Source of the DNA: Candidatus Jordarchaeales archaeon
Lineage (GTDB): Archaea > Asgardarchaeota > Jordiarchaeia > Jordiarchaeales > Freyrarchaeaceae
Length of the DNA stretch: 22,741 nucleotides
Direction of reading: 5' to 3'
Assembly: GCA_038889235.1 (NCBI GenBank)
Contig: JAWAHN010000004.1
Span: 1-22,741, forward strand
How positions within the stretch are numbered: the first letter of the stretch is position 1; each line of letters opens with the position of its first letter. Below are positions 1-22,741 of the stretch, piece by piece. The position numbers were made by a program, and so were the translations under genes. A model generated the notes under the pieces. The model was not told the DNA's origin and made no database searches. It saw only the letters and a program-made list of their open reading frames with translations.

Positions 1-410
1 GGGACTGTTTTTGTTTCCTTGTGTTTTTTTGTTTGTTTTTTGTTTTTTAAGTTTTTTCTTTTTCTTTTTTTGTTTGGTTTTCGGAACATTGGTTTTTTGG
101 TTTGGGGTTTATAAGGATGTTCCGGAATTGGTTGTGTGTTTTTTGGTTTTGTTTTGTTTTTTGTGTTGTTTTTGTTGTTTTGTTTTGTTTTTTGGGTTTG
201 AGGGTGTTGTTTTTTGTTTTTTGTGTTTTTGTTTTTGGTTTTTTTGTTGTTTGGTTTTTTGTTTTTTGTGATTTGTGTTTTTTCGTGTTTTTTTGTGTGT
301 TTTTCTTTGTTTTCTTTGTTTTTTTGGTTTTTTGTTTTTGTGGTTTGGTTTTGGGTTTGTTGGTTTGGGGGGTGATGTTCCGGGTGGGTATTTATGTTTT
401 TCTGTTTTTG
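1..410. repeat. Low-complexity G+T-rich non-coding tract (possible CRISPR leader or upstream regulatory region)
   Basis: Hand count: 14 A and 12 C in the first 360 nt (about 93% G+T), with many T-runs. It lies directly upstream of the cas1 operon. The leader role is inference only, since no repeat is visible. Confidence 0.6.
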
Positions 411-423
411 AAATATATTTCCG

Positions 424-438
424 AAAAGTATTTATATT
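424..438 (+). promoter_or_regulatory. Archaeal BRE/TATA promoter of the adaptation operon
   Basis: AAAAGTA followed by TTTATATT (431-438), about 22 nt before ATG 460 with no RBS. This is typical leaderless spacing. Confidence 0.6.
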
Positions 439-456
439 GCTTTTTGCTCTTTTTTC

Positions 457-1389
457 GTGATGGGCTGTGGCGGGGTGGTTGCTGTGTTTGGGCGTGGTCG
501 GTTGGCTGGCTTTGTTGGTGGGGTTTGTGGTGGTGTTTCTTGTGTTGATGAGTGTTTTGTTGTGGTTGGTGGTTTTGGTTGGCGTCGTTTTTTCGATTTC
601 TGGTTGCCGTTTGTTGATACTGTTTCGCTTGTTGATGGTGGGGTTGAGTGGGGTGGTTTTCCTCTTTTTGGTGAGCATGTTTTTGTTTTTGGTGAGGGGA
701 GGCGTTGTGTGGGTTGTTTGGGTTCCGCTGTGGTTGATGGTTTTAGTCTTTGTGGGGGTTGTGCTTCTTCGGTTTGGGGGGCTAGGTGGATGTGTAGTGT
801 TAGGGGTGCTGGTGTCCCGTTTGGTTCTTCGTCTTGTAGCTTGGATGATCCTGCGTGTGGTTTGAGGGGGGCTGCTTCTAGGTGTGGTGGTGAGCACTAT
901 GTTTACCTTGCGGGGTTTGGCTGGGTTTTGAAGGTTGGTGTTGTTGCTGCTGAGAGGCGGGATGGTTTTGTTTCTCGTTTGTTGGAGCAGGGGGCTGACT
1001 GGGCTGCTGTTTTTTCTGGTGGGTTTACGCTTCCCGAGGCTCAGCTTGTTGAGAGGGAGGTTTCGAGGGTTTTTGGTGTTGCTGAGAGGGTTGGGCTTGG
1101 GGAGAAGGTTGAGGTTTTTCGTTCTGGTGTGGTGTGTGACTGGGGTGGTGTTGTGGGGGAGGTTGCGGACTATTTTGGTCTTAGGCTTGTAGGCTGCTAC
1201 GATTTTTCGGGCGTGTATGGTTGCTGCCCGGAGTTTGAGGTTGCTGGTGTCGTGCGTGGTCCTAGGGTGTTTGGGGGGAGGCTCGTCTACGCTAGGGGGA
1301 ATGTGGCGTTCTTCGATGTCGGCGGGGAGGGGGTTTACGCTCTCGACCTTTCTTCTCTTCAGGGTTTGCCTGTCGAGTGTGAGGTTTGA
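457..1389 (+). CDS. DUF2797-like protein: Cys-rich Zn-binding region plus GIY-YIG-like motif (putative nuclease)
   Basis: C84xxC87, C99xxC102, C113, C127, C134, then C143xxxH147-YVYLA...K159VG...R174LLEQGA...E194AQLVE, and a C-terminal GRLVYARGNVAFFD. This matches my recollection of the DUF2797 pattern. Start at GTG 457 or ATG 460. Confidence 0.75.
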   Translation: MMGCGGVVAVFGRGRLAGFVGGVCGGVSCVDECFVVVGGFGWRRFFDFWLPFVDTVSLVDGGVEWGGFPLFGEHVFVFGEGRRCVGCLGSAVVDGFSLCGGCASSVWGARWMCSVRGAGVPFGSSSCSLDDPACGLRGAASRCGGEHYVYLAGFGWVLKVGVVAAERRDGFVSRLLEQGADWAAVFSGGFTLPEAQLVEREVSRVFGVAERVGLGEKVEVFRSGVVCDWGGVVGEVADYFGLRLVGCYDFSGVYGCCPEFEVAGVVRGPRVFGGRLVYARGNVAFFDVGGEGVYALDLSSLQGLPVECEV

Positions 1390-1402
1390 AGGGGGTGTTA
1401 GT

Positions 1403-2428
1403 GTGGAACTTGAGGTTTTTACTTCGGGGTGTAGGGTTGGGCGTAGGGGTAGGCTTATTAGGGTTACGCGTGGCGGCGAGGTGGTTTGTGAGGTTCCGGT
1501 GTCTAAGCTTAGCATGGTTATTGTTTCGGGTAGGGTTTCGGTTTCGAGTGAGGCTGTCCGTCTTCTTGCTGAGAACGGGGTTCCGGTTTTGTTTATGTGC
1601 GGGTGGAGGCCTGTTGCTTTGCTTCACGGCTTCTTCATGCATGGGACTGTTTTGACTAGGAGGGAGCAGATTGCGGCTTACCGTGACTGGAGGGGGGTTC
1701 ACCTGGCTAAGGGGTTTGTTAGGGGTGGCCTTGTAAACAAGGCTCAGCTCCTCCGCTACTTTGCGGCGAGTAGGGGTAGGAGTGATGGAGGGGTTGCGAG
1801 GGTTCTCGAGGAGGCCGCGTCCGAGATTTTCAGGGTAGCGTGCGAGGTTGACGGGGTTGAGGGCGAGTCTGTGGATGAGGTTAGGTTTGAGATTATGGGT
1901 TTGGAGGCTGAGGGGGCTAGGTTGTACTATGAGGCTTTGCGCCTACTGCTTCCGGAGGAGGCTGGGTTTGAGAGGCGTGAGAGGAGGCCTCCTAGGGACC
2001 CTGTGAACGCGTGTCTGAGCTATGGTTACAGTTTGCTTAACGCGAAGTGTTTGGCTGTGGTTGCTGCTTGCGGGCTTGAGCCTTACGCTGGCTTCCTTCA
2101 CGCTGACAGGTCTGGTAAGCCTTCCCTCGTCCTGGACTTGTCTGAGGAGTTTAGGCAGCCTGTGGTGGACAGGACTGTTGTCTCGCTTTTCTCTAAGGGT
2201 GAGCTTAGGAGGGAGGATTTCTCGTTTAAGGGTGGCTTTGTCGTGCTTGAGAAGAGAGGGAGGGAGGTGTTGCTGAGGGCTTTAAACGAGAGGTTTAGGG
2301 GGGAGGTGAGGGTTGACGGGGGCTCGGCCCAGCTTGGGAGCGTTATTTCTAGGCAGGCGAGGATGGTGGCGCGCTTCCTCCTGGGGAAGGCGCCTAAGTA
2401 CGAGCCTTTCTTCTTTGACTGGCACTAG
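1403..2428 (+). CDS. cas1: CRISPR-associated endonuclease Cas1
   Basis: GLEAEGARLYY, RRPPRDPVNACLSYGY, GFLHADRSGKPSLVLDLSEEFR (catalytic E/H/D-E). Start reassigned from 1217 to GTG 1403 after RBS GGGGGTG, giving 341 aa. Confidence 0.97.
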   Translation: MELEVFTSGCRVGRRGRLIRVTRGGEVVCEVPVSKLSMVIVSGRVSVSSEAVRLLAENGVPVLFMCGWRPVALLHGFFMHGTVLTRREQIAAYRDWRGVHLAKGFVRGGLVNKAQLLRYFAASRGRSDGGVARVLEEAASEIFRVACEVDGVEGESVDEVRFEIMGLEAEGARLYYEALRLLLPEEAGFERRERRPPRDPVNACLSYGYSLLNAKCLAVVAACGLEPYAGFLHADRSGKPSLVLDLSEEFRQPVVDRTVVSLFSKGELRREDFSFKGGFVVLEKRGREVLLRALNERFRGEVRVDGGSAQLGSVISRQARMVARFLLGKAPKYEPFFFDWH

Positions 2429-2438
2429 GAGGGGTTGG

Positions 2439-2720
2439 ATGTTCGTGGTGGTTTACGACATCACTGATGACAGGTTGAGGGAGCGGGTTGCCTTGACGCT
2501 CATGGAGTACGGTTTTAGTAGGGTGCAGAGGAGCGTGTTTGTGGGAGATGTTAGCAGGAATGTGGCTGAGATGCTTGCCATCGAGCTTAGGAGGCTTGTC
2601 GAGGGGAGCCCCTGTGACCTGAGGATAATACCGGTGTGCGCGAGGTGCTACATGGGGGTGATCATCGTTGCAAGGTATGGTGAGCCCTCTGAGGCTGAGA
2701 GGGAGGTTGTGGTGACGTGA
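2439..2720 (+). CDS. cas2: CRISPR-associated endoribonuclease Cas2
   Basis: MFVVVYDITDDRLRERVA...RVQRSVFVG. Start at ATG 2439 after GGAGGGG, 93 aa, directly downstream of cas1. Confidence 0.96.
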   Translation: MFVVVYDITDDRLRERVALTLMEYGFSRVQRSVFVGDVSRNVAEMLAIELRRLVEGSPCDLRIIPVCARCYMGVIIVARYGEPSEAEREVVVT

Positions 2721-3256
2721 AGGCTCTCTTTACCGTCGACGACGTGAGGCAGTACGCTTACTGCAGGAGGAAGATCTATTTCAGGTATGTTTTGAGGGTT
2801 AGGGTTAAGCCGACGGTTAAAATGGAGCGCGGGAGGGAGGAGCACTCGAAGTGGAAGCCGAGGGGTGAAGGATACTTTAGCGTTTACCTTTCTTCTGAGG
2901 GGCTTGGGCTTGCCGGTTTGGTCGACTACTTCATTTATGGCGGCGGCGTCGTGGTCCCCGTTGAGGTGAAGTTTGGTGGCCGTGGGAGGGTACACGCCAG
3001 CCACTACCTGCAACTGGTGGCTGAGGCCCTCCTGCTGGAGGAGTGCTTCGGCGTGAGGGTCGAGAAAGGGGTCATAGAGTACCCTGACACGGGTGTGAGG
3101 GTGGAGGTGAGGGTGACCGACGGAGCTAGGCTTAGGGTTCTCAGAATGCTGGAGGAGATGAGGGAGATCGTGGAGGGAGAGGTTATCCCTCCCCCGGCGC
3201 GGAGAAGGGCAAGGTGTGAGGCTTGTGAGGTTTACAAGGTTTGCATGGGGGTTTAA
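2717..3256 (+). CDS. cas4: CRISPR-associated exonuclease Cas4
   Basis: N-terminal YCRRKIYF, RecB-like GLVDY...PVEVK and QLVAE, C-terminal CEACEVYKVC (four Fe-S Cys). GTGA overlap with cas2. Confidence 0.95.
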   Translation: MKALFTVDDVRQYAYCRRKIYFRYVLRVRVKPTVKMERGREEHSKWKPRGEGYFSVYLSSEGLGLAGLVDYFIYGGGVVVPVEVKFGGRGRVHASHYLQLVAEALLLEECFGVRVEKGVIEYPDTGVRVEVRVTDGARLRVLRMLEEMREIVEGEVIPPPARRRARCEACEVYKVCMGV

Positions 3257-3337: not shown

Positions 3338-3407
3338 GGAAAGCCGCTGTTTCAACTGGCTTGTTTTGTTTCAATTGAATTTTATTTTTTCTTTACAATT
3401 TTTTCTT

Positions 3408-3430
3408 TTCTATGAAACGTAAAATATATT
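3408..3430 (+). promoter_or_regulatory. Promoter/operator upstream of the AAA+ operon, near-identical to the csa3 promoter
   Basis: TTCTATGAAA-CGT-AAAATATATT, compared with TTCTATGAAA-TG-AAAATATATT at 13028-13049. Confidence 0.55.
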
Positions 3431-3465: not shown

Positions 3466-3675
3466 ATGGCAGGACTTCCCCCGTCGCTTCATACTTTCAC
3501 CCGTCTCTCCGGTGACTCGATGCAAAAACAGCCCCCACGAAGGAGGGTTGAGGGCATGCTTGCGGCATGCTTTCTCGTTGGTGTTGAAGCAGTCTGTCTG
3601 CGTTGTCAGTTTTCATGTTGCTCTGTGTCCAGTTTGTGTTTCCCGATAACTGGGTTCTCCGTGTTATGTGAGTAG
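3466..3675 (+). CDS. Possible small Cys-rich protein (69 aa)
   Basis: ATG preceded by AAGGTGG and about 35 nt downstream of a TATA-like element. The stop codon abuts the GTG of the next ORF. No recognisable family. Confidence 0.3.
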   Translation: MAGLPPSLHTFTRLSGDSMQKQPPRRRVEGMLAACFLVGVEAVCLRCQFSCCSVSSLCFPITGFSVLCE

Positions 3676-4854
3676 GTGGCCCTATACTCTTCTCTTAGGT
3701 TTCAGGAGGTGGATTTGTTGAAGGCGGATTTGAGTGTTTTGAGTGAGTCTCCCTTATCTTTAACACAGGTGGTTAGTGACGAGACTTTAATGAAGTTTTA
3801 TGGGAAAAGCTTGCTGCTGCTCGGTCCCCCCGGTGTGGGGAAGAGTGAGACTGTCAGGCGTGTTGCGGAAAAACTTGCTGAGCGGATGGGGTTGAGGTTT
3901 GTGGAGCTGGTGGACGAGGTCGAGGTCGACGGGGATGTTTTCTTGTTTTACGATTTGAGGTTGACGGAGGTTGAGCCGACGGATCTTGTCGGGTTCCCGG
4001 TGGTTGGGGATTGCGTGGTTTACAAGCCTTTGAAGTGGGCGGTGCTCTTCAGCAGACATCCGGGTGTCCTGTTTTTGGACGAGTTGACTAATGTGAACCG
4101 TGAGGATGTTTTGACTGCTGCTTACAGGATTATTCATGAGCGGCGGGTTGGGGATGTCAGGTTTCACCCTGGGGTTTGGGTTATCGCTGCTGGTAATGTG
4201 CCGGAGCATAGTAGTGTGGCTAGGATGCTTCCGGCCCCGTTGGTTAACAGGATGATTGTGGTTAAGTTTCCGGTGCCTAGTGTTGACGAGTGGGCGAGGT
4301 ACATGGATGAGAAATATGGGCAGGAGTGGGATAGGAGGGTTTTAGCGTATCTTAAAGTGTTTCCCAGGGATTTTCTCCATGTTCCGGGTTCGGAGACTTT
4401 GGATAATTTTCCGACGCCGCGTTCTTGGACGGAGGTGGCTTTGTTCTTGCCGAAGGTTTGGGGGGATCCGCACGCTGTGAACGTGCTCTGTAGGGGGTGT
4501 CTTGGGGAGAGTGTTGGAGGAAAGTTCCTTGCTTTCCTTAAGATGGAAGTGCCGGATATCGATGAGATTTTGGAGAAGCCTCAAGTGTTTGGTAAGCTTG
4601 GGGTTGAGCAGCGCCACTTGTTGTGCACCGCTTTAGCCGACTGGTTGAAGGCTGACTTTAACAGGAGGGCTGTGAGGGCTCTTCCCCTCTTGAAGTTGAT
4701 GCTCTCTGAGAGCAGGGAGATGTTCATGTTCCTCGCCTCTGTTATGGGTAAGAGGTATGCCGAGAAGCTTTACAGGTTTCTGCACCACGAGGCTAGGGAC
4801 CTCTTGATGCCGCTTCTCGAGCAAGTTGCGGAGTTTGCTGATCCTATTTTGTAG
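3676..4854 (+). CDS. MoxR/AAA_5-type AAA+ ATPase
   Basis: Walker A GPPGVGKS, helix-2 insert YDLRLTEVEPTDLVGFP, Walker B VLFLDE, sensor-1 IAAGN, Arg finger LVNRM. The real start may be TTG 3715 or 3718 after RBS GGAGGTG. Confidence 0.9.
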   Translation: MALYSSLRFQEVDLLKADLSVLSESPLSLTQVVSDETLMKFYGKSLLLLGPPGVGKSETVRRVAEKLAERMGLRFVELVDEVEVDGDVFLFYDLRLTEVEPTDLVGFPVVGDCVVYKPLKWAVLFSRHPGVLFLDELTNVNREDVLTAAYRIIHERRVGDVRFHPGVWVIAAGNVPEHSSVARMLPAPLVNRMIVVKFPVPSVDEWARYMDEKYGQEWDRRVLAYLKVFPRDFLHVPGSETLDNFPTPRSWTEVALFLPKVWGDPHAVNVLCRGCLGESVGGKFLAFLKMEVPDIDEILEKPQVFGKLGVEQRHLLCTALADWLKADFNRRAVRALPLLKLMLSESREMFMFLASVMGKRYAEKLYRFLHHEARDLLMPLLEQVAEFADPIL

Positions 4855-4897
4855 GGTGGTGGGTGCTGGGCTGCGCAGTTTTAAGGGGGTGGTGGGT

Positions 4898-6115
4898 GTG
4901 AAGTATTGGGACGTGGCTGAGGATCTGCGTTCTATATGCACGGCGCTGTTTGGGGTTGTCCCGTGGATTTCCGCCTTTCTTATGAAGCTTAGGGTGGTCG
5001 GTGTAGAGGACATGCCGTGCGATGGGGCGGTCAACGATATGGGTGTGTTGTTCATAAACGTTAGCTCCTGGCGTAGGGCTTCGATGAGTGAAAAGGTGTT
5101 CATCTTGCTTCACGAGGCGTTGCACGTCGCGCTTAAACACTTTGCCAGGGCGAGGAACATCCTCGACAGGGAGGGAAAGGTAAACCTCGTGCTTTTCAAC
5201 GTGGCTTGCGATCTAGTGATTGATGACATGCTTATCATGGACCGCGCGCTTACGAGGTCGCTCGCGAAAGTCTCCGGGAAACACTTTTACTCGCTCTTGT
5301 CGAAGGTGGCATGCACAGACGTGAAGTATCGTTTTGGTATGTCGTGCGAGGAAATTTACCACTTGTTGCTTAGGAAGGTTAAAGTGGTACCCGATATCAC
5401 CATCGACCTCTGCTTTGACACAACGTATGGAGAGGAGGACGTCATACAGGAGGGGTCGCCTGAAATCTATTCCAAGCCAAGCTGGATGGATGTTGCAAGT
5501 AGGATTGAGAGCGTGTTGAGGAGCATAGAAGTATGCTTTGGAGGTCTTAGTGGCTGTGGGGGGTATATGGTCGCCGAGGAGTTACTGAAGCCGAAGATTA
5601 ACTGGAGGGCTGAGCTCAGGGAGAGCATACGCCGCGGGGTGGGGCGCAATGTTGTGTCGACTTGGACTAAGCGGCACAGAAAGCTTCCCGGGCTCGCACC
5701 GGGGATAGTTATGCTCAGGCGCCCCGACATCTATTGCTTGGTCGACGTTAGTGGGAGCATAAGCCAGAATATGGTGAACCAGTTTTTCACCGAGATTTTC
5801 ACCGCTGCGCGTCTTTCCAAGGTTCACGCCGTGTTCTTCGACGAAAAGGTTAGAGGGGTTTTCAGGGTGAGGCCCGGCATTATACCAAGGGTGGAGGGGG
5901 GAGGCGGCACGGTGATCAGCCCGGCTCTCAGTCTGGTCTACAAGAAGGCGCGCCGAGGCGACATAGTCGTCGTGCTCACGGACGGGCTCGTCTCCGACGA
6001 GCGGAAGCAGGATAAATGGCTGAGGAAGTTGGCTTCAAAGGTGGGGGAGGTGATTTATTGTTCAACAGCAAGGTTCCCCAATGTTGAGGTTAAAAAGGTG
6101 AAGTTGGAGGTGTAA
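4898..6115 (+). CDS. HExxH metallopeptidase plus vWA domain protein (DUF2201-like), partner of the AAA+ ATPase
   Basis: FILLHEALHVALKH and NVACDLVID at the N-terminus. vWA MIDAS residues LVDVSGSIS, GGGGT and VVLTDG at the C-terminus. Start reassigned to GTG 4898 (the track ORF from 4826 overlaps the ATPase). Confidence 0.88.
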   Translation: MKYWDVAEDLRSICTALFGVVPWISAFLMKLRVVGVEDMPCDGAVNDMGVLFINVSSWRRASMSEKVFILLHEALHVALKHFARARNILDREGKVNLVLFNVACDLVIDDMLIMDRALTRSLAKVSGKHFYSLLSKVACTDVKYRFGMSCEEIYHLLLRKVKVVPDITIDLCFDTTYGEEDVIQEGSPEIYSKPSWMDVASRIESVLRSIEVCFGGLSGCGGYMVAEELLKPKINWRAELRESIRRGVGRNVVSTWTKRHRKLPGLAPGIVMLRRPDIYCLVDVSGSISQNMVNQFFTEIFTAARLSKVHAVFFDEKVRGVFRVRPGIIPRVEGGGGTVISPALSLVYKKARRGDIVVVLTDGLVSDERKQDKWLRKLASKVGEVIYCSTARFPNVEVKKVKLEV

Positions 6116-6120
6116 GGGGT

Positions 6121-7050
6121 TTGTCGTCCTCTTATTTCCATACCGGAAACACACGTAAACGGGACGAGTTCGACCCACACTTCGAGCGACTCATGGCCCG
6201 CCTCGGAATGAGCTTCAGGTGCAGTGTGTGCGGGCGCAGGCACGAGAGTGACTGGAATGCATGCTACGGGAAGGCAATCAAGATCATAGACCAGTATCTC
6301 TTAATGGAGAACGTTCTTCAAATGATTACGTGTGTCAGAAAATTGAAAGAGATGGGTGAAAGTGAGGGCGACAATCCCGCCGGCAATTTCTGGAGTATTT
6401 TCAACCCGCTTAGCCAGCGCGTTGCCCCCGTGCTCTTGAGGGGTGTAGCGGGGTTGAACGTCGCAATTAAGGTGGCTAGTGAAGTGGCTGCGGAGTATGC
6501 TGCGTCCTTCGGCGTCAAAGCCGAAGAGCTTGTCAGTTACCTTGAAGACCCGTGGAGGTTCCGTGAGAATTTCCTGAGCAACGCTATAATAGATTTCACA
6601 CTCCTCGTAGATCTACCAAGTATGGTCAATCTTGTCAAGAAGTACGCTGAAGTTGTCGAGGTTGTGAATAAGAGGATTTTAGAGGCGGTTGAAGCACTCC
6701 CTGAGGCTAGAGTTGAGGAAGTGAAGAGGAGCAAAAATGGGTATATAAGCATGGTTAAGTTTGGCGGCCTGACCCTGCCGAGCAAGGTGATCATCAAATG
6801 CATATTCCCTTCTGTTTTTGAAGCCGACCTGCCGGTGAGACGAGTGAGTCTCCTCCAGGTTGATGAAGGGTTGAAGCATGCTGTAGTCTGGAGGAGCCTT
6901 GGGAAAAGGAAGCAGGTGAAGAAAGGTTGGCTGCTTGTCTCGCGAAGCAGAGTGGTTGCAGAGCTGAGCAAAGAAGAAGCAAAACTCGACATTTCAACTC
7001 TCGTTTCAAAGTATTTGCGCTCAGAACGTGTGCAGGGTGAGTGTTTGTAG
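6121..7050 (+). CDS. Hypothetical protein with N-terminal CxxC-x3-H-x6-C zinc-finger-like motif
   Basis: 309-aa ORF 5 nt after the vWA gene, with CSVCGRRHESDWNAC and natural amino-acid composition. No family recognised. Confidence 0.75.
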   Translation: MSSSYFHTGNTRKRDEFDPHFERLMARLGMSFRCSVCGRRHESDWNACYGKAIKIIDQYLLMENVLQMITCVRKLKEMGESEGDNPAGNFWSIFNPLSQRVAPVLLRGVAGLNVAIKVASEVAAEYAASFGVKAEELVSYLEDPWRFRENFLSNAIIDFTLLVDLPSMVNLVKKYAEVVEVVNKRILEAVEALPEARVEEVKRSKNGYISMVKFGGLTLPSKVIIKCIFPSVFEADLPVRRVSLLQVDEGLKHAVVWRSLGKRKQVKKGWLLVSRSRVVAELSKEEAKLDISTLVSKYLRSERVQGECL

Positions 7051-7059
7051 GGGGTGCGG

Positions 7060-8187
7060 CTAGCTTCGAGCAATCACTTCGGCCAGCACGCGCCCCCAGC
7101 GCGCCACCCGGTATTCGTCGTCCAGCTCGTTTCTGGCAAGCTTTGATGCCTCCACTCTGGAGGCTCTTAGGAGGAGTTCAGCTCTCTCCCTCTTACCTCC
7201 CTGCAAGGCGAGGAAGAGAAGCTTAACCAATTCGACAGCCCTATCGTGCGCCTTATCTCCGATGGCAGGCGTGAGAGCCCTTCTGAGCAGGCTATTTAGA
7301 ATGTTGGCAACTTCACCCCTTTGCTTTAACGCCTTGAGCGCTCTACCAGACTTGGCGACGAATGAACTTAGCGGGAGGTAGTGTGTGACGCCGACTTCAG
7401 CCGCCTTTTGTCCTCCCGGGTCCTTCATGCTCACCAGTATGATGTCTGGGGCGTCGTCCGGTGCGAGCATGGCGAACCATATTATGAGTGCCTCTTCGGG
7501 CCTTAGCCCCGGGGGCAGCCACCCCTCTTTGCTGGAAAGGGATTCGGTGAGCATCTTGTATTCAAGCGTGCTTGCTCCGAGCTCATATGGGAAAACGTGG
7601 AGGGTGTGCCACGTCTGCTGCCCTCCCCCAACCTCGTACTTCACTCTGCCAACTCTTGAGAGGACGTAGCCTGAGAGGAGCAGCATGAAGTAGTCTAGGT
7701 TCACTTTTACGTCGTACCTCTCTTTGTCTTTCATGAACGGGGCCCTTGTGAGAGCGTACTGCTCTGGCTTGAATATGCTTGGGAGAGATAGGTCTCCTTC
7801 TCCGAAGCTGGAGAAGGAGGCGGCTAGGTCTTGCGGCCTATAGTTCCTGAGGTTATTGGAGTAAGCGGTCAAAGCGTCGGAAAACGTGCTTCCTGCAGGG
7901 ATGGAGAGCCTCTTCATGACTGAAGAGAATATTTTCTTGTCGTTGCCCGAAGCCGGAATCTCAGTACCCTTCCACCGCTCAACGTACTTTTTCAGCACGA
8001 AGGCCGCGCTGCTGACTCCATCTGCGAGGAGGGCGGCCGCGCTCCCCACAGCTTGTATCTCGACGCTGTCTCCCTGCATGGTTATCCTTTCTCTTTTTAC
8101 TTCATCAAGGAAGGAGATGAAGGTTAGCACGTAGTACCTCGCTATTCCCGGCGGTAGGACGATGCGCACGCGCTTCGCGTCTAGCAA
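7060..8187 (-). CDS. cas8a: Type I-A Cascade large subunit Cas8a (CsaX/Csa4-like)
   Basis: 375 aa, last gene after cas3'' in the csa5-cas7-cas5-cas3'-cas3'' order typical of type I-A. RBS GGAGGTGG. Contains LSLPSIFKPEQY. The call is mainly positional. Confidence 0.75.
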   Translation of the reverse strand: MLDAKRVRIVLPPGIARYYVLTFISFLDEVKRERITMQGDSVEIQAVGSAAALLADGVSSAAFVLKKYVERWKGTEIPASGNDKKIFSSVMKRLSIPAGSTFSDALTAYSNNLRNYRPQDLAASFSSFGEGDLSLPSIFKPEQYALTRAPFMKDKERYDVKVNLDYFMLLLSGYVLSRVGRVKYEVGGGQQTWHTLHVFPYELGASTLEYKMLTESLSSKEGWLPPGLRPEEALIIWFAMLAPDDAPDIILVSMKDPGGQKAAEVGVTHYLPLSSFVAKSGRALKALKQRGEVANILNSLLRRALTPAIGDKAHDRAVELVKLLFLALQGGKRERAELLLRASRVEASKLARNELDDEYRVARWGRVLAEVIARS

Positions 8188-8915
8188 AATACCACCTCCT
8201 CAATTTCCTTCACAAACATTTTTCTCATTTCGTTCATCCCCCCTCTTCTCCTCGCTTCTAGGTTGTCCGCCACGATCAGGGGGTACATGACTAGTATGTA
8301 GAGTTTCATCCACCTTCCAGCTTTTTGCGCTTGCCTTAGGCCGTTCAGCCACGAGTGGAAGCTTTCGACGTCGCTGCCTCTCAAGACGAGGCCCCTCAGG
8401 TTGATGTTGAACCTTCCGAAGACGGGTTGGAGGTCTCCTTCGCAGAACCCACTTTCGACCAATTTGAGCACCTTGGCTTTTGCGTCGCTCTCCCTTTCAC
8501 TCATCATCTTGATCGAGTTTCTCGAGGCGTGGTGGTGGTTTAGGATGCTTAGCGCGAGTAGGGCTTTTTCGACCATACTCCACGCGTCACCCTGAGAGTT
8601 AAGGAACTTGTAGCACATTGCCGCAGATGCAACCTCGTGGTATTGGAAGCCCCCTTCTTTGACTTGGGAGCAGTTGTCGTCGAACCGCGCCTGAAACTTG
8701 TTGTAGGCTTTCCCGACGTCGTGGAATAGGATGGCGAGCCTAGCAATCTCTTCAAGTCTCTCCGGCGGCACAGTTGTGTCTTTAAGGGCGGACCTTAGCC
8801 TCCTCGAGGCCACCTCGAAGTAGTTTTCGTTTTTCTCTGCGAATGACTTGAACACGGCGAGGCATCCTTCAATGTGGCTTGAAAGAGACTGTCCTGCGAA
8901 CGCGCACGGCTTCAA
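8181..8915 (-). CDS. cas3'': Cas3'' HD nuclease
   Basis: HIEG, ILFHDVGK, YHEVAS, NHHH and VADN motifs. 4-nt overlap with the cas3' stop. Confidence 0.93.
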   Translation of the reverse strand: MKPCAFAGQSLSSHIEGCLAVFKSFAEKNENYFEVASRRLRSALKDTTVPPERLEEIARLAILFHDVGKAYNKFQARFDDNCSQVKEGGFQYHEVASAAMCYKFLNSQGDAWSMVEKALLALSILNHHHASRNSIKMMSERESDAKAKVLKLVESGFCEGDLQPVFGRFNINLRGLVLRGSDVESFHSWLNGLRQAQKAGRWMKLYILVMYPLIVADNLEARRRGGMNEMRKMFVKEIEEVVFC

Positions 8916-10609
8916 TCTTCAACCCCCACATATCCCACCTCTCGGTCTATCTTGTCGACTACCAGTCCATCGTAGCCCTTTTTCAGAAGTTCAAGCGACA
9001 GGTTTTCTGCGCTGATGAAACCTTTCCTTTCTCTGTCACTTGGAACAACTATTTTTCCGTCCTTGACCAAGTTTGCCCCTTGCTTTAACGCGTTCTTCGC
9101 CATTTTCTCCGACAACGCCACGGGGTTTTGCAAGTAGACCCCGCTTTTGACGTCCTCGGCGGCGAAGAGAGGTACTATGCCGAAGGACGGGGTGATCTTT
9201 CCGACGTGCTCGATGAAGTCCCTCGCATCACTACTTGTTATGAACGGGTAAGCGTCGAGGTAACCGAGCGACTGCTCGAAAACTTTGAAGTACCGGCGGA
9301 GCTCGTCGGCGAACCCTTCACTGTAAACCTTGTCCATCACAGTTCTAACCTCATCTTCCACTTCACTCCTCGAGCGGAAATCGCTGTGCTCACCGAGAAG
9401 CTTCCAGGTTTCGTCGACCACTCTCTGGTCGTAGACGCCCTTCGATACGCGAGCGACAACCACAACCTCCCCTTCATCGTGCCCCTCCCTCCTGGCGACG
9501 CGGCCCATCCTCTGAAGGAGCCTGTCTGGCGGACACACCTCGCTCACCAAAACGTCGAAACTCTCGTCTATTCCAGCCTCCACGACCTGCGTGGCAACCA
9601 GAACCCTAGTCTTCTTTATCGCCTCCGATCTCTCCCTCTTAAGCAACTCCGGCAGCCTCCCATGGAGGAGAACTGGACTTAAACCAGCAGCCTTCAGCTC
9701 CCCGTAAGCGTCGACAGCGGCCTTCACGGTGTTCAGCACAACCATAACCCTCTTGCCCCGCCGATGGCATTCGGCCACTTCCTCCAAGATTCCCTTCAAG
9801 GAGTTTCCGTCGAGTTTAACCAACTTAAGCATCTTCTTTCTCCTCCTCTCCTCGAACTCCTTGTCATCGGACGGCGAGTAGGATTCCTCCTCGAACCTCA
9901 GTCCAGACTCCTCAACATGTTCCTTCAGGAACTCTTTGAGCGTTTTTGGCATAGTTGCAGTCATTACGACTACTGGGACGCCGACGCACGCCATTTGGAT
10001 TATTGCCCTCGTCGCGGAGCAGAGGGCTCTCGCCTCGTCTTCGAGCGAGGAGAGCTCCCCGGCGGACTGAGGCGAAAGGAGGTGGAATTCGTCGAAGACG
10101 ACTATCGAGGAGTAAATGTTGCCCCTCGGAAACTCGTAGTGCGACACGTCGTACTTGAAGAGCTTCGCCAGCTCGTATGCGGGTGCCTTGTAGAAGTTGA
10201 GCAGGAAGGTGTCAAGTGTGACGACGACACACTTCTTGGCGAAGAAGGGGGAGCCGGGGGACCCCATGTGCTGGACGCCGACAAAGCTTGATCTATAGCC
10301 GAGGATCTCCATCCAGCAGCGCAGTCTTTGACCGAGGTCGTCGACTATAGTCCTCATGGGGAGCACGTGGATAACCCTTAGGAAGAAAGGGTTACCGTCG
10401 ACGGCCGCCTTGGCGAGGGTGAGCGTCATCGTTGACTTACCGTAGCCCGCCGGGTACTCCATTAAAACCACCCCCTCCTCCCCCCTGTCGAGGAGCTCGT
10501 CGAGACGGCCCAGCACTTTTAGCACTCCCGGCCTCGGCTTCCATCCAAGCTTCTCCCCAAGCACGTTACACGCTTCAAGGTATTTGTTTTGGAGTAAGCC
10601 TTCAGCCAT
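8912..10609 (-). CDS. cas3': Cas3' SF2 helicase
   Basis: PAGYGKS, VFDEFH, VMTAT, LLHGRL, ATQVVEAGID and QRMGRVAR motifs. No HD domain (split Cas3). Confidence 0.95.
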   Translation of the reverse strand: MAEGLLQNKYLEACNVLGEKLGWKPRPGVLKVLGRLDELLDRGEEGVVLMEYPAGYGKSTMTLTLAKAAVDGNPFFLRVIHVLPMRTIVDDLGQRLRCWMEILGYRSSFVGVQHMGSPGSPFFAKKCVVVTLDTFLLNFYKAPAYELAKLFKYDVSHYEFPRGNIYSSIVVFDEFHLLSPQSAGELSSLEDEARALCSATRAIIQMACVGVPVVVMTATMPKTLKEFLKEHVEESGLRFEEESYSPSDDKEFEERRRKKMLKLVKLDGNSLKGILEEVAECHRRGKRVMVVLNTVKAAVDAYGELKAAGLSPVLLHGRLPELLKRERSEAIKKTRVLVATQVVEAGIDESFDVLVSEVCPPDRLLQRMGRVARREGHDEGEVVVVARVSKGVYDQRVVDETWKLLGEHSDFRSRSEVEDEVRTVMDKVYSEGFADELRRYFKVFEQSLGYLDAYPFITSSDARDFIEHVGKITPSFGIVPLFAAEDVKSGVYLQNPVALSEKMAKNALKQGANLVKDGKIVVPSDRERKGFISAENLSLELLKKGYDGLVVDKIDREVGYVGVED

Positions 10610-11435
10610 ACCCTACCACTACCTCGCCGTTAGCCTTGAAGGCGCGCCCCTCCACTGTGAGGGAGACCTCAACCTCCTCGCTTTTGAGGGGAACCTTCGA
10701 CCCGGGGATGATGTACTCCTCGCGCATCAGACCCGTACTCCTACCCCACCCTCCCCTCCAAAATGACTCCCTGAAGAACCTTCCCTCGACTTCTCCGAGC
10801 CTCGCGGGGAAATAGTAGCGTGTCCTAACCCTCCTTTCTTTGAGGGGTTTTGCCTCGGATAACTGGACTTCTTCGACGGAAATTATGGACTCTTTGCTTC
10901 CAACCCTTGTTATCTGCCAGGCCGCCATCCTCAGCTCGTCTTCAAGCTTACCGGGTACAATTTCCCTCAGTCTCTCGTCGACCAGCAGTACCATGGATAG
11001 CACCCCGGACGGGTAGTAGACTTTTCCGGCGGGTAGGGCTCCCGTCCTGTACTTCATGAGGTACCTTCTCCCCCCAACTGCTTCCTCTTCATCGGTGCCT
11101 TTTGTCGTCTCCTGGAATAAGAGGGTGACGAACTTGTTTAGGTCATCCCACATGTAGCCCATTGACTGGTCTATGTCGAAGCTAGCGGTGGCGTAAATGT
11201 ACTTCTCCAGTAGTCCGGCTGGGCTCATGGGGCCTAGCTTCTTGTCGAGGAGGACTTCGCCCTCCCACCTCACGCCCTGGTACGATAAAACCCCTCTTCT
11301 AGCCAGAGGGTATGCTAAGGCTCCTATGATTGTGGTTGGGGGTGGTATTGGGAGGGTGGCCTGGAACTTGCTTGTCCCAGGGACTCTCACCCAGAACCCC
11401 CAGTGGTAGCGCGCCTTAATAGTTAGAGCTAGCAA
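10602..11435 (-). CDS. cas5: Type I-A Cas5 (Cas5a)
   Basis: HWGFWVR...TLPIPPPTTIIGALA and QITRVGSKES. Lies between cas7 and cas3'. Confidence 0.92.
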   Translation of the reverse strand: MLALTIKARYHWGFWVRVPGTSKFQATLPIPPPTTIIGALAYPLARRGVLSYQGVRWEGEVLLDKKLGPMSPAGLLEKYIYATASFDIDQSMGYMWDDLNKFVTLLFQETTKGTDEEEAVGGRRYLMKYRTGALPAGKVYYPSGVLSMVLLVDERLREIVPGKLEDELRMAAWQITRVGSKESIISVEEVQLSEAKPLKERRVRTRYYFPARLGEVEGRFFRESFWRGGWGRSTGLMREEYIIPGSKVPLKSEEVEVSLTVEGRAFKANGEVVVGYG

Positions 11436-11486
11436 CTTGAAGCCCCCGGCACTAAACTTTTAAGCAAGGGAAAAAAGGGGGTTTGT

Positions 11487-12512
11487 TTAGCGTGTCCAGC
11501 TTTTCACTGTTGCAGCGACGCGCCTTGCAAGTTCTTCTAGGTTCCCTGAAACGTCGATGCCCTCCACTCCTTCCGCCGCCTTCTCCTTGTCCATTGCGAA
11601 GAGCTTTATTTCGGCGTCGTTTCCTCCGCGCAGCTCTTTTGTGAGGGATTGGAAGCTCTCCTTCCTCTTGGCGGTCTCGGCGATGTAGTTTTTGGAGTTT
11701 CCCGGTGAGACCACGAAGAACGTGTTTTTCGAGACGGCTGCAACTGCTGAGAGGGGTTCCACGTTTGGCAGGAACCTGCTCCTCTTAGCCCCGAGTCTTA
11801 GCTGAGATAGGAATGTGCTCAGCGCTGAGAGGGCTGCGGTCACACGCTTCTCCCTCTCGCCTTCCAATCGCTTCTCAAGTGACTCGTCACGTTTGCCGAA
11901 GCCGGTCGAGGGCCTGGATATCTGGGAGACGTCCATGTTGAAGGTGAACGTGTAAACTGCTGAGCCTACCTCAACATTGTAGGGTTGTTGCAGGTCCATG
12001 TAGGAAGGTGAGAAGCGCACGTGGAACTGTGCTTCTAGGGCGGCGGCTTCTACGTCGAATACCGCTGGAACCATGTATCCGACCTGGAACGTGGAGGTCC
12101 TCTTCACGGGGTACCTTCCAGCGTAGAGGAAGCCGCCCACGTCGCACACGTAGTCTATCAGCATTATTTCAACTTCAGCCCTGCGTATGTCGTCCTCGCT
12201 ATTCGGCACCTTCACCCCGTACTTTGTAAGGAATTTTTCGTCCGCGAACTTTATGAACTCCCCTCTCTCCGACTCTTCGCTCAGCGATAGCCCAGCCCTC
12301 TTGGCCTCCTCAGCAAGGTGGACTTGGTAGGCGTGCGCGAGCGACTCGCCGGAGATAGTTGGCACGAACCTTATGGAGTAGCCTCCGTCGCCGCTTGGGA
12401 CAACTATAGGCGCCGTCCTGTGCCTTACGAGGTTTCCAACAGTCTCCACGCTGTTAAGGCTTTCAACGTTGACGAGGAGCCTGCATGCAACACTCAAAAA
12501 CACGTCAACCAT
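11487..12512 (-). CDS. cas7: Type I-A Cas7 (Csa2/DevR family)
   Basis: VNVESLNSVETVGNLVRHR, VPTISGESLAHAYQ, CDVGGFL and VKRTSTFQVGY. Confidence 0.95.
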   Translation of the reverse strand: MVDVFLSVACRLLVNVESLNSVETVGNLVRHRTAPIVVPSGDGGYSIRFVPTISGESLAHAYQVHLAEEAKRAGLSLSEESERGEFIKFADEKFLTKYGVKVPNSEDDIRRAEVEIMLIDYVCDVGGFLYAGRYPVKRTSTFQVGYMVPAVFDVEAAALEAQFHVRFSPSYMDLQQPYNVEVGSAVYTFTFNMDVSQISRPSTGFGKRDESLEKRLEGEREKRVTAALSALSTFLSQLRLGAKRSRFLPNVEPLSAVAAVSKNTFFVVSPGNSKNYIAETAKRKESFQSLTKELRGGNDAEIKLFAMDKEKAAEGVEGIDVSGNLEELARRVAATVKSWTR

Positions 12513-12527
12513 TCAAACCACCTCTCT

Positions 12528-12953
12528 TCACGTGGATTTTTTAGAGGCCGCAGACATACACGAGGCGACCATGGACATAGCGTAGCTCGCCACGCTCCTA
12601 GCAAGCCTAATGTCCCTGGAAACATCCTCCAGGAAGGCTTTCACCTGCTCGCTGTCGGCGAGGTACCCTTCAACGAAGTACTCCCCCTCGTCCGAGACGA
12701 TGCGCACCCTTGTTAGCTCCTTACCACCGCTCTCAAACTTCTCCTCGCAGACCCCCTGTCTCCCCCCGGTCTCACGGTACCTTCTCAGTAGGGTTTCGAG
12801 CATCCTCGCGTTCTCGTATATCGCTCTGCTCACGCTGTCCAGGGAGAGGGCGTTGGCCACCCTGTCGATAACAGAGTAGCTTCCCGACGCCACGCAGACC
12901 GTTGCTAGGGCAGTCGCGATCCCCCTATATTTCGAGAGTTCAAGGGATTGCAT
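12528..12953 (-). CDS. csa5: Type I-A small subunit Csa5 (Cas11)
   Basis: 141 aa with YSVIDRVANALSLDSVSRAIYE. First gene of the operon, upstream of cas7. Confidence 0.88.
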   Translation of the reverse strand: MQSLELSKYRGIATALATVCVASGSYSVIDRVANALSLDSVSRAIYENARMLETLLRRYRETGGRQGVCEEKFESGGKELTRVRIVSDEGEYFVEGYLADSEQVKAFLEDVSRDIRLARSVASYAMSMVASCMSAASKKST

Positions 12954-13007: not shown

Positions 13008-13027
13008 GTTCTAAGAAAAAGTTTTAA

Positions 13028-13078
13028 TTCTATGAAATGAAAATATATTCTTGAAGGTTGAGTTTCACTATAGCGAAA
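13028..13078 (+). promoter_or_regulatory. csa3 promoter with a 16-bp palindromic operator candidate
   Basis: TTCTATGAAATGAAAATATATT (13028-13049), then TTTCACTA|TAGCGAAA (13063-13078; arms match 7/8) just before RBS GGGGTG. Confidence 0.5.
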
Positions 13079-13093
13079 GTGGGGTGTTTTGGC

Positions 13094-13723
13094 TTGGCGG
13101 GTGTTGGTAGGAGCACGGTGATAGTTGCGTCGCTTGGGTTTGAGGAGCGCTTCCTTCTAAGGGCGGTCGTGAGGAGGGGTGTTAGGGAGCGCGACAAGGT
13201 TGTTGTCTTTATGCCTGAGAGGGGGGATCCACGGGGGGAGAAGGCGTTCCAGACGTTGAGGGAGCTCGTGGAGAAGGCGTTTCCACAGGTGGAGGTTATC
13301 AAGTACGAGGTTGACGTCCAGGATTTTTATGGTGCGGTGAGTAAGATTAGGGGTATTCTGAAAGAGTTAGCCTTGGAGGGAGACTTGGTGTTCAACTTGA
13401 GTGGGGGCCAGAGGTTGTTGATACTCGAAATACTGGCGGCTGCGCTAAGCCTTGGGGTTAACGCGGAGCTTGAGGTTGAGACCGAGGACTCCTCTGGCTA
13501 CGTGGCTGTCCCGTTGAAAGTCATGCACCCGTTGGATGTGGACAACGTTGACCAGGAAATACTGAGGAGGGCCGTGAGTGGGGTGAGGCTCAAGGACTTG
13601 GAGCATTTGAGTGTGTCGAAGGCGACCCTTTGGAGGAAGCTAAAAAGGCTGACGGAGGAAGGGCTCCTTGAAATGGATAGGGACAAGTACAAGCTAAGCG
13701 ATTTAGGGCGGATGTGGATATGA
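13094..13723 (+). CDS. csa3: Csa3 CARF-wHTH transcriptional regulator
   Basis: VASLGFEERFLLRAV, FNLSGGQRLLI and a C-terminal wHTH (SKATLWRKLKRLTEEGLL). Divergent from the I-A operon. Start at TTG 13094 (RBS GGGGTG) or GTG 13118. Confidence 0.9.
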   Translation: MAGVGRSTVIVASLGFEERFLLRAVVRRGVRERDKVVVFMPERGDPRGEKAFQTLRELVEKAFPQVEVIKYEVDVQDFYGAVSKIRGILKELALEGDLVFNLSGGQRLLILEILAAALSLGVNAELEVETEDSSGYVAVPLKVMHPLDVDNVDQEILRRAVSGVRLKDLEHLSVSKATLWRKLKRLTEEGLLEMDRDKYKLSDLGRMWI

Positions 13724-13949: not shown

Positions 13950-13957
13950 TTTATAAG
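13950..13957 (+). promoter_or_regulatory. TATA box of the RNA ligase gene
   Basis: TTTATAAG 23 nt before ATG 13981, a leaderless spacing. Confidence 0.5.
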
Positions 13958-13980
13958 TGTTGGCTGACTTTTACTTCTTG

Positions 13981-15015
13981 ATGAGCGCTGAGGATGTTTT
14001 GGCTAAAGCCTTAAGCTACTTGAAGAAGTGCGGTTGCAGGGTTGAAGTCGCTGGTAGTGAAGTGGAGAGGGTGGTTGAGCTTTTCAGGAAGGGGTTTGGG
14101 GGGCGGCCGAGGATTAAGCCATACCACATAGACCCTCCGAGCCCGGCGCTTTACTCCTACCTTGATGAGGTTAGGCCCGTTGTTTACGCCGAGCAGAAGT
14201 TTGATGGCACCCACATTCAGGTCTCGGATGTCGGGCTTTTCAAGCATGATGGGGGTCCTCTGTCCAACGACCAGCTTGGCGGGCTGCTGTACGTGGCCGC
14301 GGTGGAGCCGAGGAAGGCTGGAAGTGTTCTTGACATGGTTGAGGAGGGTTACGTTGTTGAGCTAGAACTCTTTGGCAGCAAGTACACTCCTATGGGCTTC
14401 CATAGGGATTACGAGAAGCCGTTCGACTTGGTGGTTTTCGAGGTGGGGTTAGAGGGCAAGTGGGTTCCCCCACCGGAGAAGTACGATGTTCTGAAGAGGT
14501 TTGGTGTTCCATGCCCGCAGAGCGTTAGGGTGGACTACAGGGATGCCTACCACTTAAAGGAGGAGGCTGAGAGGATAGCTGAGAGGCCGGACTGGTTTGA
14601 GGGGGCGGTTTTCAAGGCTCCTTTCAAGCCGACTGTCGGCTTATACTTGAAGGAGTACGTTAAGACTGGGAGCATGATAGTGTTCAAGGTGAAGAAAAGG
14701 GTGGAGAAGAGGGAGGAGAGGGCGAAGCCGAGAGTGGAGGAGGAGAGGAGGGTTGCCCCCGTGTCTGAGGTTTACCGGGAGTTGAGGGATGAGGCTTTGA
14801 ACGAGGCTGCGAAGATAGCGGTGGAGAGGGGGGAGGATTACGTTGGAGACGTGCGAAACACGGGTGTGCTCATCGAAACCATAGTGAGGAGCATATGTGA
14901 GGCCCACCCGGCTCTCGTTGAGAGGTTCAAGGCTGACGGGTTCACGGAGAGGGACCTAAGGAAGGTTGTAGGGGAAGCATTGATGGAAGCTAGGAGGAGG
15001 ATGGCGAGGCGCTGA
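13981..15015 (+). CDS. ATP-dependent RNA ligase-like nucleotidyltransferase (Rnl2-like)
   Basis: Motif I EQKFDG, III ELELFG, IIIa LVVFEV, IV FEGAVFK, V FKVKK. The helical C-terminal domain (KIAVERGEDYVGDVRNTGVLIETIVRSICE) resembles the Rnl2 C-domain. No OB-fold DNA-ligase domain is evident. Start moved from 13957 to ATG 13981. Confidence 0.8.
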   Translation: MSAEDVLAKALSYLKKCGCRVEVAGSEVERVVELFRKGFGGRPRIKPYHIDPPSPALYSYLDEVRPVVYAEQKFDGTHIQVSDVGLFKHDGGPLSNDQLGGLLYVAAVEPRKAGSVLDMVEEGYVVELELFGSKYTPMGFHRDYEKPFDLVVFEVGLEGKWVPPPEKYDVLKRFGVPCPQSVRVDYRDAYHLKEEAERIAERPDWFEGAVFKAPFKPTVGLYLKEYVKTGSMIVFKVKKRVEKREERAKPRVEEERRVAPVSEVYRELRDEALNEAAKIAVERGEDYVGDVRNTGVLIETIVRSICEAHPALVERFKADGFTERDLRKVVGEALMEARRRMARR

Positions 15016-21774: not shown

Positions 21775-22741
21775 CTGCCGGATAAAGGGACATTCTTGGA
21801 AGTGGTGATGAAGCCGCGGGGGGAGCTGCTCTTCAGGACCCCAACCCCCTTTGCCCTCGGAGGATACGCTGAGACGCAGCCGCGTCCATCCGAGTTTAGT
21901 GTGGCCGGAATGCTGCGCTCAGCCATAATGGACCTATCGGAGGAGAAGGACATTCCCAAGGACGTTTTGGAGGAAATCCTAGGGAAGGCGAAGGGGTACA
22001 CTACCTACGACTTCTGCTGGAAACTAGTTGGGCCATACTTCCTAAAAGGTGACAGTGAGGTCTTCTATCCGATCCCACTAGACGTGTTCGTAATCGAAGA
22101 AGAGGGGGCACGCATACGCCTAGCTGACTGGCTTATCCCACAACTGGAGGAGGTGAATGGAGGGTTCAGGGAGTTACTGGCCCCGTCGGCGTTTAAGGGT
22201 GAGAGCGCACGAAAAAGGTACTGGCTTGTCAGCTCGAAGTTCATGAAGAAGTACCTTGACGGAGAGAGGGGGTTTGACGAGAAGGAGGCGGTTAGAGGCG
22301 GAGACGTCTACAGGCTGAAGACGCACCCCCACGTGAAGCTGAGCAGAGAGACTAAAACGGTTGAGGTGGTAGGCGGGGAGGGAATGTACTTCGCTGTTGA
22401 GAGGCTAGTCCTCAGGGATGGCTGGTCTTTCATAGCCGGGGTGCAGCTCGACAACTGCGGGAAGCCGGATAAAGTTAAGGAGGTATTCCTCAACTTAAAC
22501 GGAACTATTGCCAGGCTTGGCGGAGAGGGCGGGCTAGTGGAGTTAGAGGTTAGGGAGGCCAAATCACTTCTAGAGGCGGAAGCAGGGGGTAATGTTGGAG
22601 ACGGGGGTAGGGTCAGGCTTGTGCTGACTTCTTCGGCGGTCTTCGGGGACGGCAGCAGGTCCTCGTTCCTACCAAATCTGAGTGGTGTGAAGGGCTGCGC
22701 TTGCGCACGTGTTGCCGTCGGGGGTTGGGATTATGTGGCTA
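21775..22741 (+). CDS. cmr3: Type III-B Cmr3 (partial; runs off the window end)
   Basis: Manually translated open frame absent from the ORF track: FLEVVMKPRGELLFR, KLVGPYF, YPIPLD, RLGGEG, LVLTS, GGWD. Start uncertain (CTG 21775, TTG 21796 or ATG 21808). Confidence 0.92.
   Translation, partial: MPDKGTFLEVVMKPRGELLFRTPTPFALGGYAETQPRPSEFSVAGMLRSAIMDLSEEKDIPKDVLEEILGKAKGYTTYDFCWKLVGPYFLKGDSEVFYPIPLDVFVIEEEGARIRLADWLIPQLEEVNGGFRELLAPSAFKGESARKRYWLVSSKFMKKYLDGERGFDEKEAVRGGDVYRLKTHPHVKLSRETKTVEVVGGEGMYFAVERLVLRDGWSFIAGVQLDNCGKPDKVKEVFLNLNGTIARLGGEGGLVELEVREAKSLLEAEAGGNVGDGGRVRLVLTSSAVFGDGSRSSFLPNLSGVKGCACARVAVGGWDYVA

Follow-up and report, generated by a model that had tools for sequence, protein, structure and literature searches.

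Contig JAWAHN010000004.1 of the Asgard archaeon Candidatus Jordarchaeales archaeon (assembly GCA_038889235.1) carries a three-gene module inside an island of cas genes, the genes that accompany clustered regularly interspaced short palindromic repeats (CRISPR). The module encodes a MoxR-like AAA+ ATPase, a DUF2201 protein that joins a putative metallopeptidase domain to a von Willebrand factor A (vWA) domain, and a zinc-knuckle protein referred to here as X. The window analysed is the entire contig C4 (22,741 bases) of the source genome, G000, a 2.14-Mb metagenome-assembled genome, and its gene map is based on Pfam and NCBIfam scans of the window proteins (Table 1). The island holds csa3 as well as type I-A and type III-B genes. 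Within it, the module has cas1-cas2-cas4 on its left and, on its right, an opposite-strand cassette running from csaX to csa5, followed by csa3. An initial annotation, made from the letters of this DNA alone, had described three co-directional open reading frames (ORFs) with gaps of 43 and 5 nucleotides (nt), cas genes on both sides, and a gene content outside the canonical type I-A and III-B sets; all of these points hold. Comparison with related genomes shows that the position in the cas island is conserved rather than accidental within this archaeal family.

Proteins of the module and their promoter

The ATPase is a member of the AAA_5 (MoxR/dynein-related) clade of AAA+ proteins, scoring 33.9 bits against the Pfam AAA_5 model (cut-off 22). 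Its Walker A (G50/G53/G55/K56), Walker B (D135/E136) and sensor-1 (N174) residues are intact and, together with N139, R192 and R249, invariant in an alignment of 11 sequences. Assignment to MoxR proper (MRP, Pfam AAA_3) was not obtained, as AAA_3 is not among the 15 families listed; bpMoxR matches the ATPase over the P-loop only, at 20.3 bits and below its cut-off of 27, and no NCBIfam MoxR model matches it. The protein is therefore MoxR-like by partnership and clade rather than MoxR proper. A sequence search of the PDB returned only ComM (E 0.005), and the gene is present in a single copy in G000.

The second protein belongs to the DUF2201 metallopeptidase-vWA family, with both domains above their Pfam cut-offs (DUF2201_N 46.6 bits against 23.2; DUF2201 36.7 bits against 26.4) and with both an HExxH motif and a metal ion-dependent adhesion site (MIDAS). 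Its ORF opens at 4826, and orthologues begin at the residue encoded at 4898, which gives the 43-nt gap to the ATPase gene. The HEALH motif is intact, and H76, N101 and the MIDAS residues D283/S285/S287/T338/D362 are invariant in 17 sequences. The family assignments and the intact catalytic motifs that the initial annotation had read for these two proteins are confirmed by the Pfam scores and the two alignments. An AlphaFold model of the DUF2201 protein, with a mean predicted local distance difference test (pLDDT) score of 80, has a vWA fold (Z 14.7, root-mean-square deviation (rmsd) 2.3, 133 residues). Fold searches are dominated by this vWA domain, and the N-terminal domain is, as judged from its motifs, a putative zincin-like peptidase. 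Searching the PDB by sequence with this protein gave no match.

Protein X, whose gene starts 5 nt past the DUF2201 gene, has no family in Pfam, NCBIfam, PHROG or PADLOC. The residues of its knuckle (C34, C37, H41 and C48) are invariant down to 24% identity; the pattern reads F-R-C-x-V-C-G-R-x-H...W-x2-C and takes the form C-x2-C-x3-H-x6-9-C among orthologues. The predicted structure (pLDDT 75.7) consists of a helical bundle and a beta-sheet domain, and fold searches with it were unconvincing, with best values of E 0.1 for Foldseek against the PDB, E 0.03 against AFDB clusters and Z 5.3 in a VIA-wide search, the last to helical bundles. A look-alike from the Atlas, CDC45/DHH-CID at 0.91, has only 136 features in common with X, which is in the range of chance, and was kept as a lead only. 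Prediction of a complex between the DUF2201 protein and X scored 0.00 in a run made without controls. X diverges fastest, with 38% identity to orthologues against 65-67% for the ATPase and 81-85% for Cas7. A profile search found about 20 proteins, and scans of genomes and metagenome contigs with the X alignment returned only known loci plus one fragment resembling that of genome G004. X is followed downstream by a second, diverged X-like gene in tandem both in G004 (L007 = G004:C16, 7750-8637) and in the related contig L058, and contig L031 holds two X-like copies.

The promoter motif that the module was said to share with csa3 is real: positions 3408-3430 and 13028-13049 have TTCTATGAAA plus AAAATATATT in common. 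The dyad TTCTANGAA occurs 85 times in the 2.14-Mb genome, three times on C4, and all three of these copies lie in the module and csa3 promoters; the full combination of dyad and TATA-like box is found in G000 only at these two places. In the same genome, the half of the motif next to the TATA-like box recurs, nearly identical, ahead of a proteasome alpha-subunit gene. Dyads of the type TTTC/TTC-N3-4-GAA(A) next to an AAAA(A)TATAT box are present upstream of the ATPase gene in G000, G001, L015, G004 and L029, and the csa3 promoters of G001, G002 and G003 have TTC-N2-3-GAA dyads too. The modules of G004 and L029 have csa3 next to them in divergent orientation. Such a dyad would fit a dimeric winged helix-turn-helix (wHTH) regulator, for which Csa3 is the obvious candidate.

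Between the promoter element and the ATPase gene lies a possible ORF of uncertain status. GGTGG is found 5 nt ahead of its ATG, and its TAG stop abuts the GTG start of the ATPase gene. It has no Pfam or NCBIfam family, and conservation of its sequence was not found in the leaders of relatives, which were read by eye. In L015 a small ORF seems to end likewise (TAG-GTG), and the two sequences do not align.

Recurrence in the Jordarchaeia and kinship with phages

The trio was found at six further Jordarchaeia/Freyarchaeia loci (G001/L006, L015, L042, G004, L058 and L029), in three layouts and beside csaX or csa3. In the first layout (G001, L015 and L042), the genes are ordered ATPase-DUF2201-X and converge on csaX, and the far flank varies from csa1 (G001) to ABC and cobW genes (L015) or the contig end (L042). 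In the second layout, seen in G004 from another genus, the module is divergent from csa3 and located among genes for a CARF protein, an RNA ligase and HD-Cas10, with no adjacent type I-A cassette; L058, a short G004-like contig, shows only DUF2201-X-X. In the third layout (L029), csa3 is followed by X, which is read in the opposite direction, and next comes the ATPase gene, preceded by a promoter motif of its own; the adjacent sequence again lacks a type I-A cassette. Linkage to cas genes has survived rearrangement within the lineage in these three architectures, and no instance of the Jordarchaeial-clade module was found outside a cas context. Ratios of nonsynonymous to synonymous substitution (dN/dS) between G001 and L015 are 0.17 for the ATPase, 0.16 for DUF2201 and 0.31 for X, compared with 0.20-0.25 for five cas genes. 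The three genes, intact and single-copy, are thus under purifying selection like that on the cas genes, and the module is maintained rather than decaying.

Both core genes have relatives in phages. The ATPase matches phrog_1297 (2e-50) and the DUF2201 protein phrog_1314 (4e-43), and the two form a pair in phages: in Vibrio phage D520, the one record inspected, the ATPase gene adjoins DUF2201 beside a helicase and a DNA polymerase. DUF2201 matches 174 phage genomes, including podovirus-size genomes of ~70-78 kb, ~145-kb genomes, jumbo phages, cyanophages and a Thermus phage. Contig L030, which resembles a mobile element, has MoxR, DUF2201 and an X-like gene in one block, along with a faint integrase match, many small ORFs and a 910-residue Laminin_G protein. 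A small tree of the ATPases places the Jordarchaeial copies in one clade (91/98), within an unresolved group that also holds Archaeoglobaceae, bacterial-like and mobile-element-like copies; the phage copy and that of L030 form a separate deep branch (100/100).

A CRISPR spacer of the source genome adds to this picture. Spacer 2 (40 nt, G000:C3:466466-466505) belongs to the array at C3:466353-470025 and lies at its leader-distal end. Its in-frame translation is LDELTNVQREDVL, the Walker B block of this ATPase family. The spacer differs at 11 of 40 positions from the resident ATPase gene (about window position 4075), at 8 of 40 from that of G004 and at nine from the mobile-element-like copy L020. 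The spacer was therefore acquired from an unsampled relative of the module's ATPase gene, and relatives of the module thus enter these cells on foreign DNA. No source with three or fewer mismatches was found in 400 Asgard genomes, and IMG/VR scans with DUF2201, distant X-like proteins and a degenerate Walker B pattern returned nothing. A viral origin, which the initial annotation had held possible, is well supported at the family level by the PHROG matches, the phage records, L030 and the spacer.

Five CRISPR arrays were found in G000 (C1:1-1567, C2:110-3888, C2:459061-460302, C3:466353-470025 and C5:28-1265). The four at contig ends have one repeat family, and the fifth has a different repeat and is part of a second type I locus. 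The first 17 nt of the window (GGGACTGTTTTTGTTTC) are the end of the genome's CRISPR repeat and are followed, within window positions 1-450, by ~400 nt of unusually GT-rich sequence (GC skew 0.62); this stretch, which precedes the DUF2797-like/cas1 operon, presumably represents the leader of the array. Both ends of C4 (window 1-127 and 22615-22741) overlap the two ends of G000:C2 by exactly 127 nt, so C2 and C4 close into a circular path of ~524 kb in the assembly, with this island, a 49-repeat array and the second type I locus (C2:460-470 kb) on it. The path may be a separate large replicon or an effect of the assembly graph. The RNA ligase gene of the window (13957-15015) recurs in G004 (L007 4691-5725) with 63% identity and there, too, neighbours a CARF gene, so that the pairing of ligase and CARF is shared between genera. 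An Rfam scan of the window found zero RNA families.

Table 1. Coordinates of the module, its promoter elements and neighbouring genes in the window, and of the altered module site in genome G003
Feature	Position	Strand	Basis
DUF2797-like gene, then cas1, cas2, cas4	457-3256	+	Pfam/NCBIfam
Module promoter element: TTTC-TAT-GAAA dyad, then TATA-like AAAATATATT	3407..3430	+	sequence; function inferred
Possible upstream ORF, 69 amino acids, Cys-rich	3466..3675	+	ORF list; status uncertain
Three-gene module (ATPase, DUF2201, X)	3676-7050	+	Pfam/NCBIfam scan, ORFs
MoxR-like AAA+ ATPase, AAA_5 clade, phrog_1297 type, 392 amino acids	3676..4854	+	Pfam, PHROG, alignment
DUF2201 protein, 405 amino acids: N-terminal HExxH zincin-like domain (putative peptidase), C-terminal vWA with full MIDAS	4898..6115	+
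Protein X, 309 amino acids: N-terminal C-x2-C-x3-H-x6-C knuckle, helical middle, C-terminal beta-sheet domain	6121..7050	+
csaX, cas3'', cas3', cas5, cas7, csa5 (type I-A cassette)	7060-12953	-	Pfam/NCBIfam
csa3 promoter: two TTCTANGAA dyads and the same TATA-like box	13009..13049	+
csa3, CARF + wHTH regulator; Csa3_N domain from ORF residue 21	13058-13723	+	Pfam/NCBIfam
RNA ligase, three CARF proteins, cmr2, cmr3	beyond csa3		Pfam/NCBIfam
G003 replacement genes and X remnant	L040 (G003:C19) 7893-10395 and 10572-10781

Proposed readings: domesticated module, passenger or separate defence

We give a probability of roughly 45% to the reading that the trio is a remodelling and protease module of virus or mobile-element type that was domesticated in the csa3/I-A/III-B island of one Jordarchaeia/Freyarchaeia family, with a functional tie to CRISPR that is most likely transcriptional, via Csa3. 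Under this reading, the MoxR-like ATPase would assemble into a ring and dock the DUF2201 protein by its vWA/MIDAS domain, in the manner of NorQ-NorD and further MoxR-vWA pairs, and ATP hydrolysis would present or unfold a bound protein for cleavage at the HExxH site. The fast-evolving zinc-knuckle protein X might then be a target-recognition adaptor or a substrate, and a dimeric wHTH regulator, most simply Csa3, would bind the dyad found at both promoters so that the module is switched with the CRISPR response. As to the target, an invader protein or host shutdown is favoured over the recycling of Cas proteins, given that the module persists in G004 and L029 with no I-A cassette beside it. The recycling of Cas1-Cas2 or Cascade, one of the roles that had been suggested for the module, fits poorly with these two loci and finds no support. 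A more specific version, in which this virus-derived metalloprotease machine is a Csa3-controlled ancillary CRISPR effector, induced by the cyclic oligoadenylate (cOA) of the type III system through the CARF regulator and cleaving an invader or host protein chosen by X, is an improbable one.

Several findings weigh against a functional tie to CRISPR. The distribution of the module is narrow: within the class it is confined to family f1, where two of four relatives besides G000 have it (G001 and G004), and it is absent from the six members of f2. The loci of genus g1 are kin, so that their shared synteny is not independent evidence, and module and csaX are convergent and hence not co-transcribed. 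G003 (92% complete) keeps csa3 and the whole I-A cassette without the module. A tblastn search with all window Cas proteins, of limited sensitivity compared with hidden Markov models, detected no cas gene closer than ~10 kb to any of 25 more distant DUF2201 loci, which come from Archaeoglobaceae, other Asgard archaea, and bacterial-like and mobile-element-like contigs. In five Asgard genomes with DUF2201, Cas1 is located on other contigs. PADLOC, a check that the initial annotation had proposed, has no model for the module; it gives only P-loop-length matches to the ATPase (E 5e-4 or weaker) and nothing for DUF2201 or X. Literature searches on DUF2201 with CRISPR, on CRISPRicity with vWA and on Asgard with CRISPR and MoxR found nothing relevant.

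The idea of a CRISPR-linked system is partly supported. Within this archaeal family the place in the cas island is conserved, given the six further loci in three layouts; a general link is not supported, given the 25 other loci without a cas neighbour. Orthologues away from cas genes had been named at the outset as the observation that would speak against it, and outside this family that is where they lie; linkage to cas genes was seen only in family f1 of the Jordarchaeia and its close metagenomic kin and, at the sensitivity of the tblastn check, not in several unrelated lineages.

Among the alternatives, the one that survives best, although we think it somewhat unlikely, is that a mobile element brought the module into a variable part of the cas island, where it does a job unrelated to CRISPR, such as protein quality control or complex assembly, with its recurrence due to inherited synteny and its promoter motif to a common strong promoter type. 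The nearest outside relatives are indeed found in unrelated contexts. Three Archaeoglobaceae contigs have them within a haem-biosynthesis operon, and others adjoin mraZ/rsmH or belong to stretches of short ORFs that lack annotation and include an MCM-like gene. Of 400 Asgard genomes, 20 have DUF2201_N; all 12 genomes of family f10 are among these, and there the gene lies away from cas1. The Cas1 genes on other contigs, the non-cas far flank of L015 and the half-motif ahead of the proteasome gene all agree with a passenger. The site is also replaceable. In G003 two genes stand there instead, whose products are secreted or membrane-anchored and abound in N-x-S/T (glycosylation) sites, with a 37-residue remnant of the X C-terminus left beside csaX. 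What speaks against a passenger is that adjacency to csa3 or csaX outlasts three rearrangements, including the permuted order in L029, that the full dyad plus TATA combination occurs in G000 only at the module and csa3, and that the Jordarchaeial-clade module was not found outside a cas context. Should the module be a passenger, the locus would still clearly exemplify a phage module that selection maintains in an archaeal chromosome.

Two of the regions just mentioned have further features. In the three Archaeoglobaceae contigs (L016, L017 and L019), the ATPase gene, a gene for a 133-residue protein and DUF2201 are inserted between ALAD and GSA aminotransferase of the haem/sirohaem operon, an arrangement that is kept in all three and recalls AAA/vWA chelatases. 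In G003, the left flank at L040 is syntenic with L015; the two replacement genes were considered as diverged module copies, which was rejected given their secreted or anchored, N-x-S/T-rich products.

It is also possible, and in our view less likely still, that the trio is a stand-alone antiviral system in a defence island, in which X senses a viral protein and proteolysis answers independently of Cas proteins, the genes being merely clustered. The rapid evolution of X (38% identity against 85% for Cas7; dN/dS 0.31), its tandem second copy in G004, the analogous MoxR-vWA conflict systems (PMC7159879) and the vWA systems near CRISPR loci (PMC10910872) would all suit such a role. They are set against the silence of PADLOC, the presence of most relatives in phages and mobile elements and not in host genomes, and the annotated non-cas flanks, at which no further defence gene was noticed. 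Finally, the trio could be what is left of an integrated virus or plasmid, or of counter-defence cargo, and be decaying within the island. This would explain the viral gene families, the loss in G003 and a spacer showing that such genes arrive on invaders, yet it is highly improbable, as Pfam and NCBIfam scans found no integrase, transposase, att-like repeat or other viral gene in the 22.7-kb contig, the motifs are intact in every copy, dN/dS is 0.16-0.31 and the module is kept across two genera.

The domesticated, CRISPR-tied module would, if it is what we propose, provide the first testable cellular context for the ATPase-DUF2201 pair, which is very common in phages and uncharacterised there. 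It also yields TTC-N3-GAA as a candidate operator for an Asgard Csa3.

Comparison with known systems

The closest known counterpart is the phage pair itself. Iyer et al. (2021; PMC7824862) described the same combination of ATPase and metallopeptidase-vWA protein in group 2.2 jumbo phages and proposed that it serves virion assembly and processing. The module and the phrog_1297/phrog_1314 pair are alike in both families, in gene order, in tight spacing and in their intact HExxH and MIDAS motifs. In contrast to the phage pair, the module is part of an archaeal chromosome, where it resides in a CRISPR-cas island; it includes X as a third conserved gene, its promoter is csa3-like, and its ATPase is set apart in the tree from the deep branch of the phage copy and L030. 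The role proposed in phages, virion assembly and processing, cannot apply here. A phage and mobile-element pair of a MoxR-like ATPase with a metallopeptidase-vWA partner is therefore already known, whereas gene X, stable residence in an Asgard CRISPR-cas island and the csa3-like candidate operator are new.

NorQ-NorD, CbbQ-CbbO and RavA-ViaA likewise combine an AAA_5-type ATPase with a vWA/MIDAS adaptor, and the vWA domain of NorD aligns with the DUF2201 model (Z 13.2, rmsd 2.5, 133 residues). Unlike the DUF2201 protein, adaptors of the NorD, CbbO and ViaA type are without a peptidase domain, and they serve a known metalloenzyme client. In the PDB, no sequence match of the module ATPase to NorQ, CbbQ or RavA was found.

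Ternary vWA-MoxR-VMAP conflict systems were described by Kaur et al. (2020; PMC7159879), and vWA systems near type III CRISPR loci by Altae-Tran et al. (2023; PMC10910872). They resemble the module in having three components, a MoxR ATPase, a vWA protein and a third, variable protein, and in their reported CRISPR neighbourhood. They differ in that the module is without VMAP, that its peptidase is fused to the vWA domain as DUF2201_N, and that X is an unrelated zinc-knuckle protein. Pfam detects no VMAP or bpMoxR-type family in the three proteins, which places the module outside these systems, and it is not a member of any known anti-phage system in PADLOC-DB.

In Acidianus two-tailed virus, p618 and p892 act in tail development. 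This archaeal-virus pair of MoxR and vWA proteins, which we liken to the module by description and not by sequence, lacks a peptidase domain (PMC7824862).

The module can also be compared with CRISPR-associated proteases: in both cases a protease, putative in the module, is encoded within a CRISPR island and may respond to CRISPR signals. CalpL/Lon-SAVED, Craspase and SAVED-CHAT are CRISPR proteases activated directly by cOA or target RNA via a fused sensor, and to our knowledge direct switching by a fused sensor domain holds for all known CRISPR-linked proteases. According to Pfam, none of the three module proteins has a CARF or SAVED domain; any link to CRISPR would therefore be transcriptional, through Csa3. 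CRISPR-linked proteases are a current frontier, and Asgard immune systems are, as far as we know, almost unstudied. If it is controlled by Csa3, the module would be a transcriptionally wired, ATP-driven, CRISPR-linked protease in Asgard archaea, next to the directly switched enzymes known so far.

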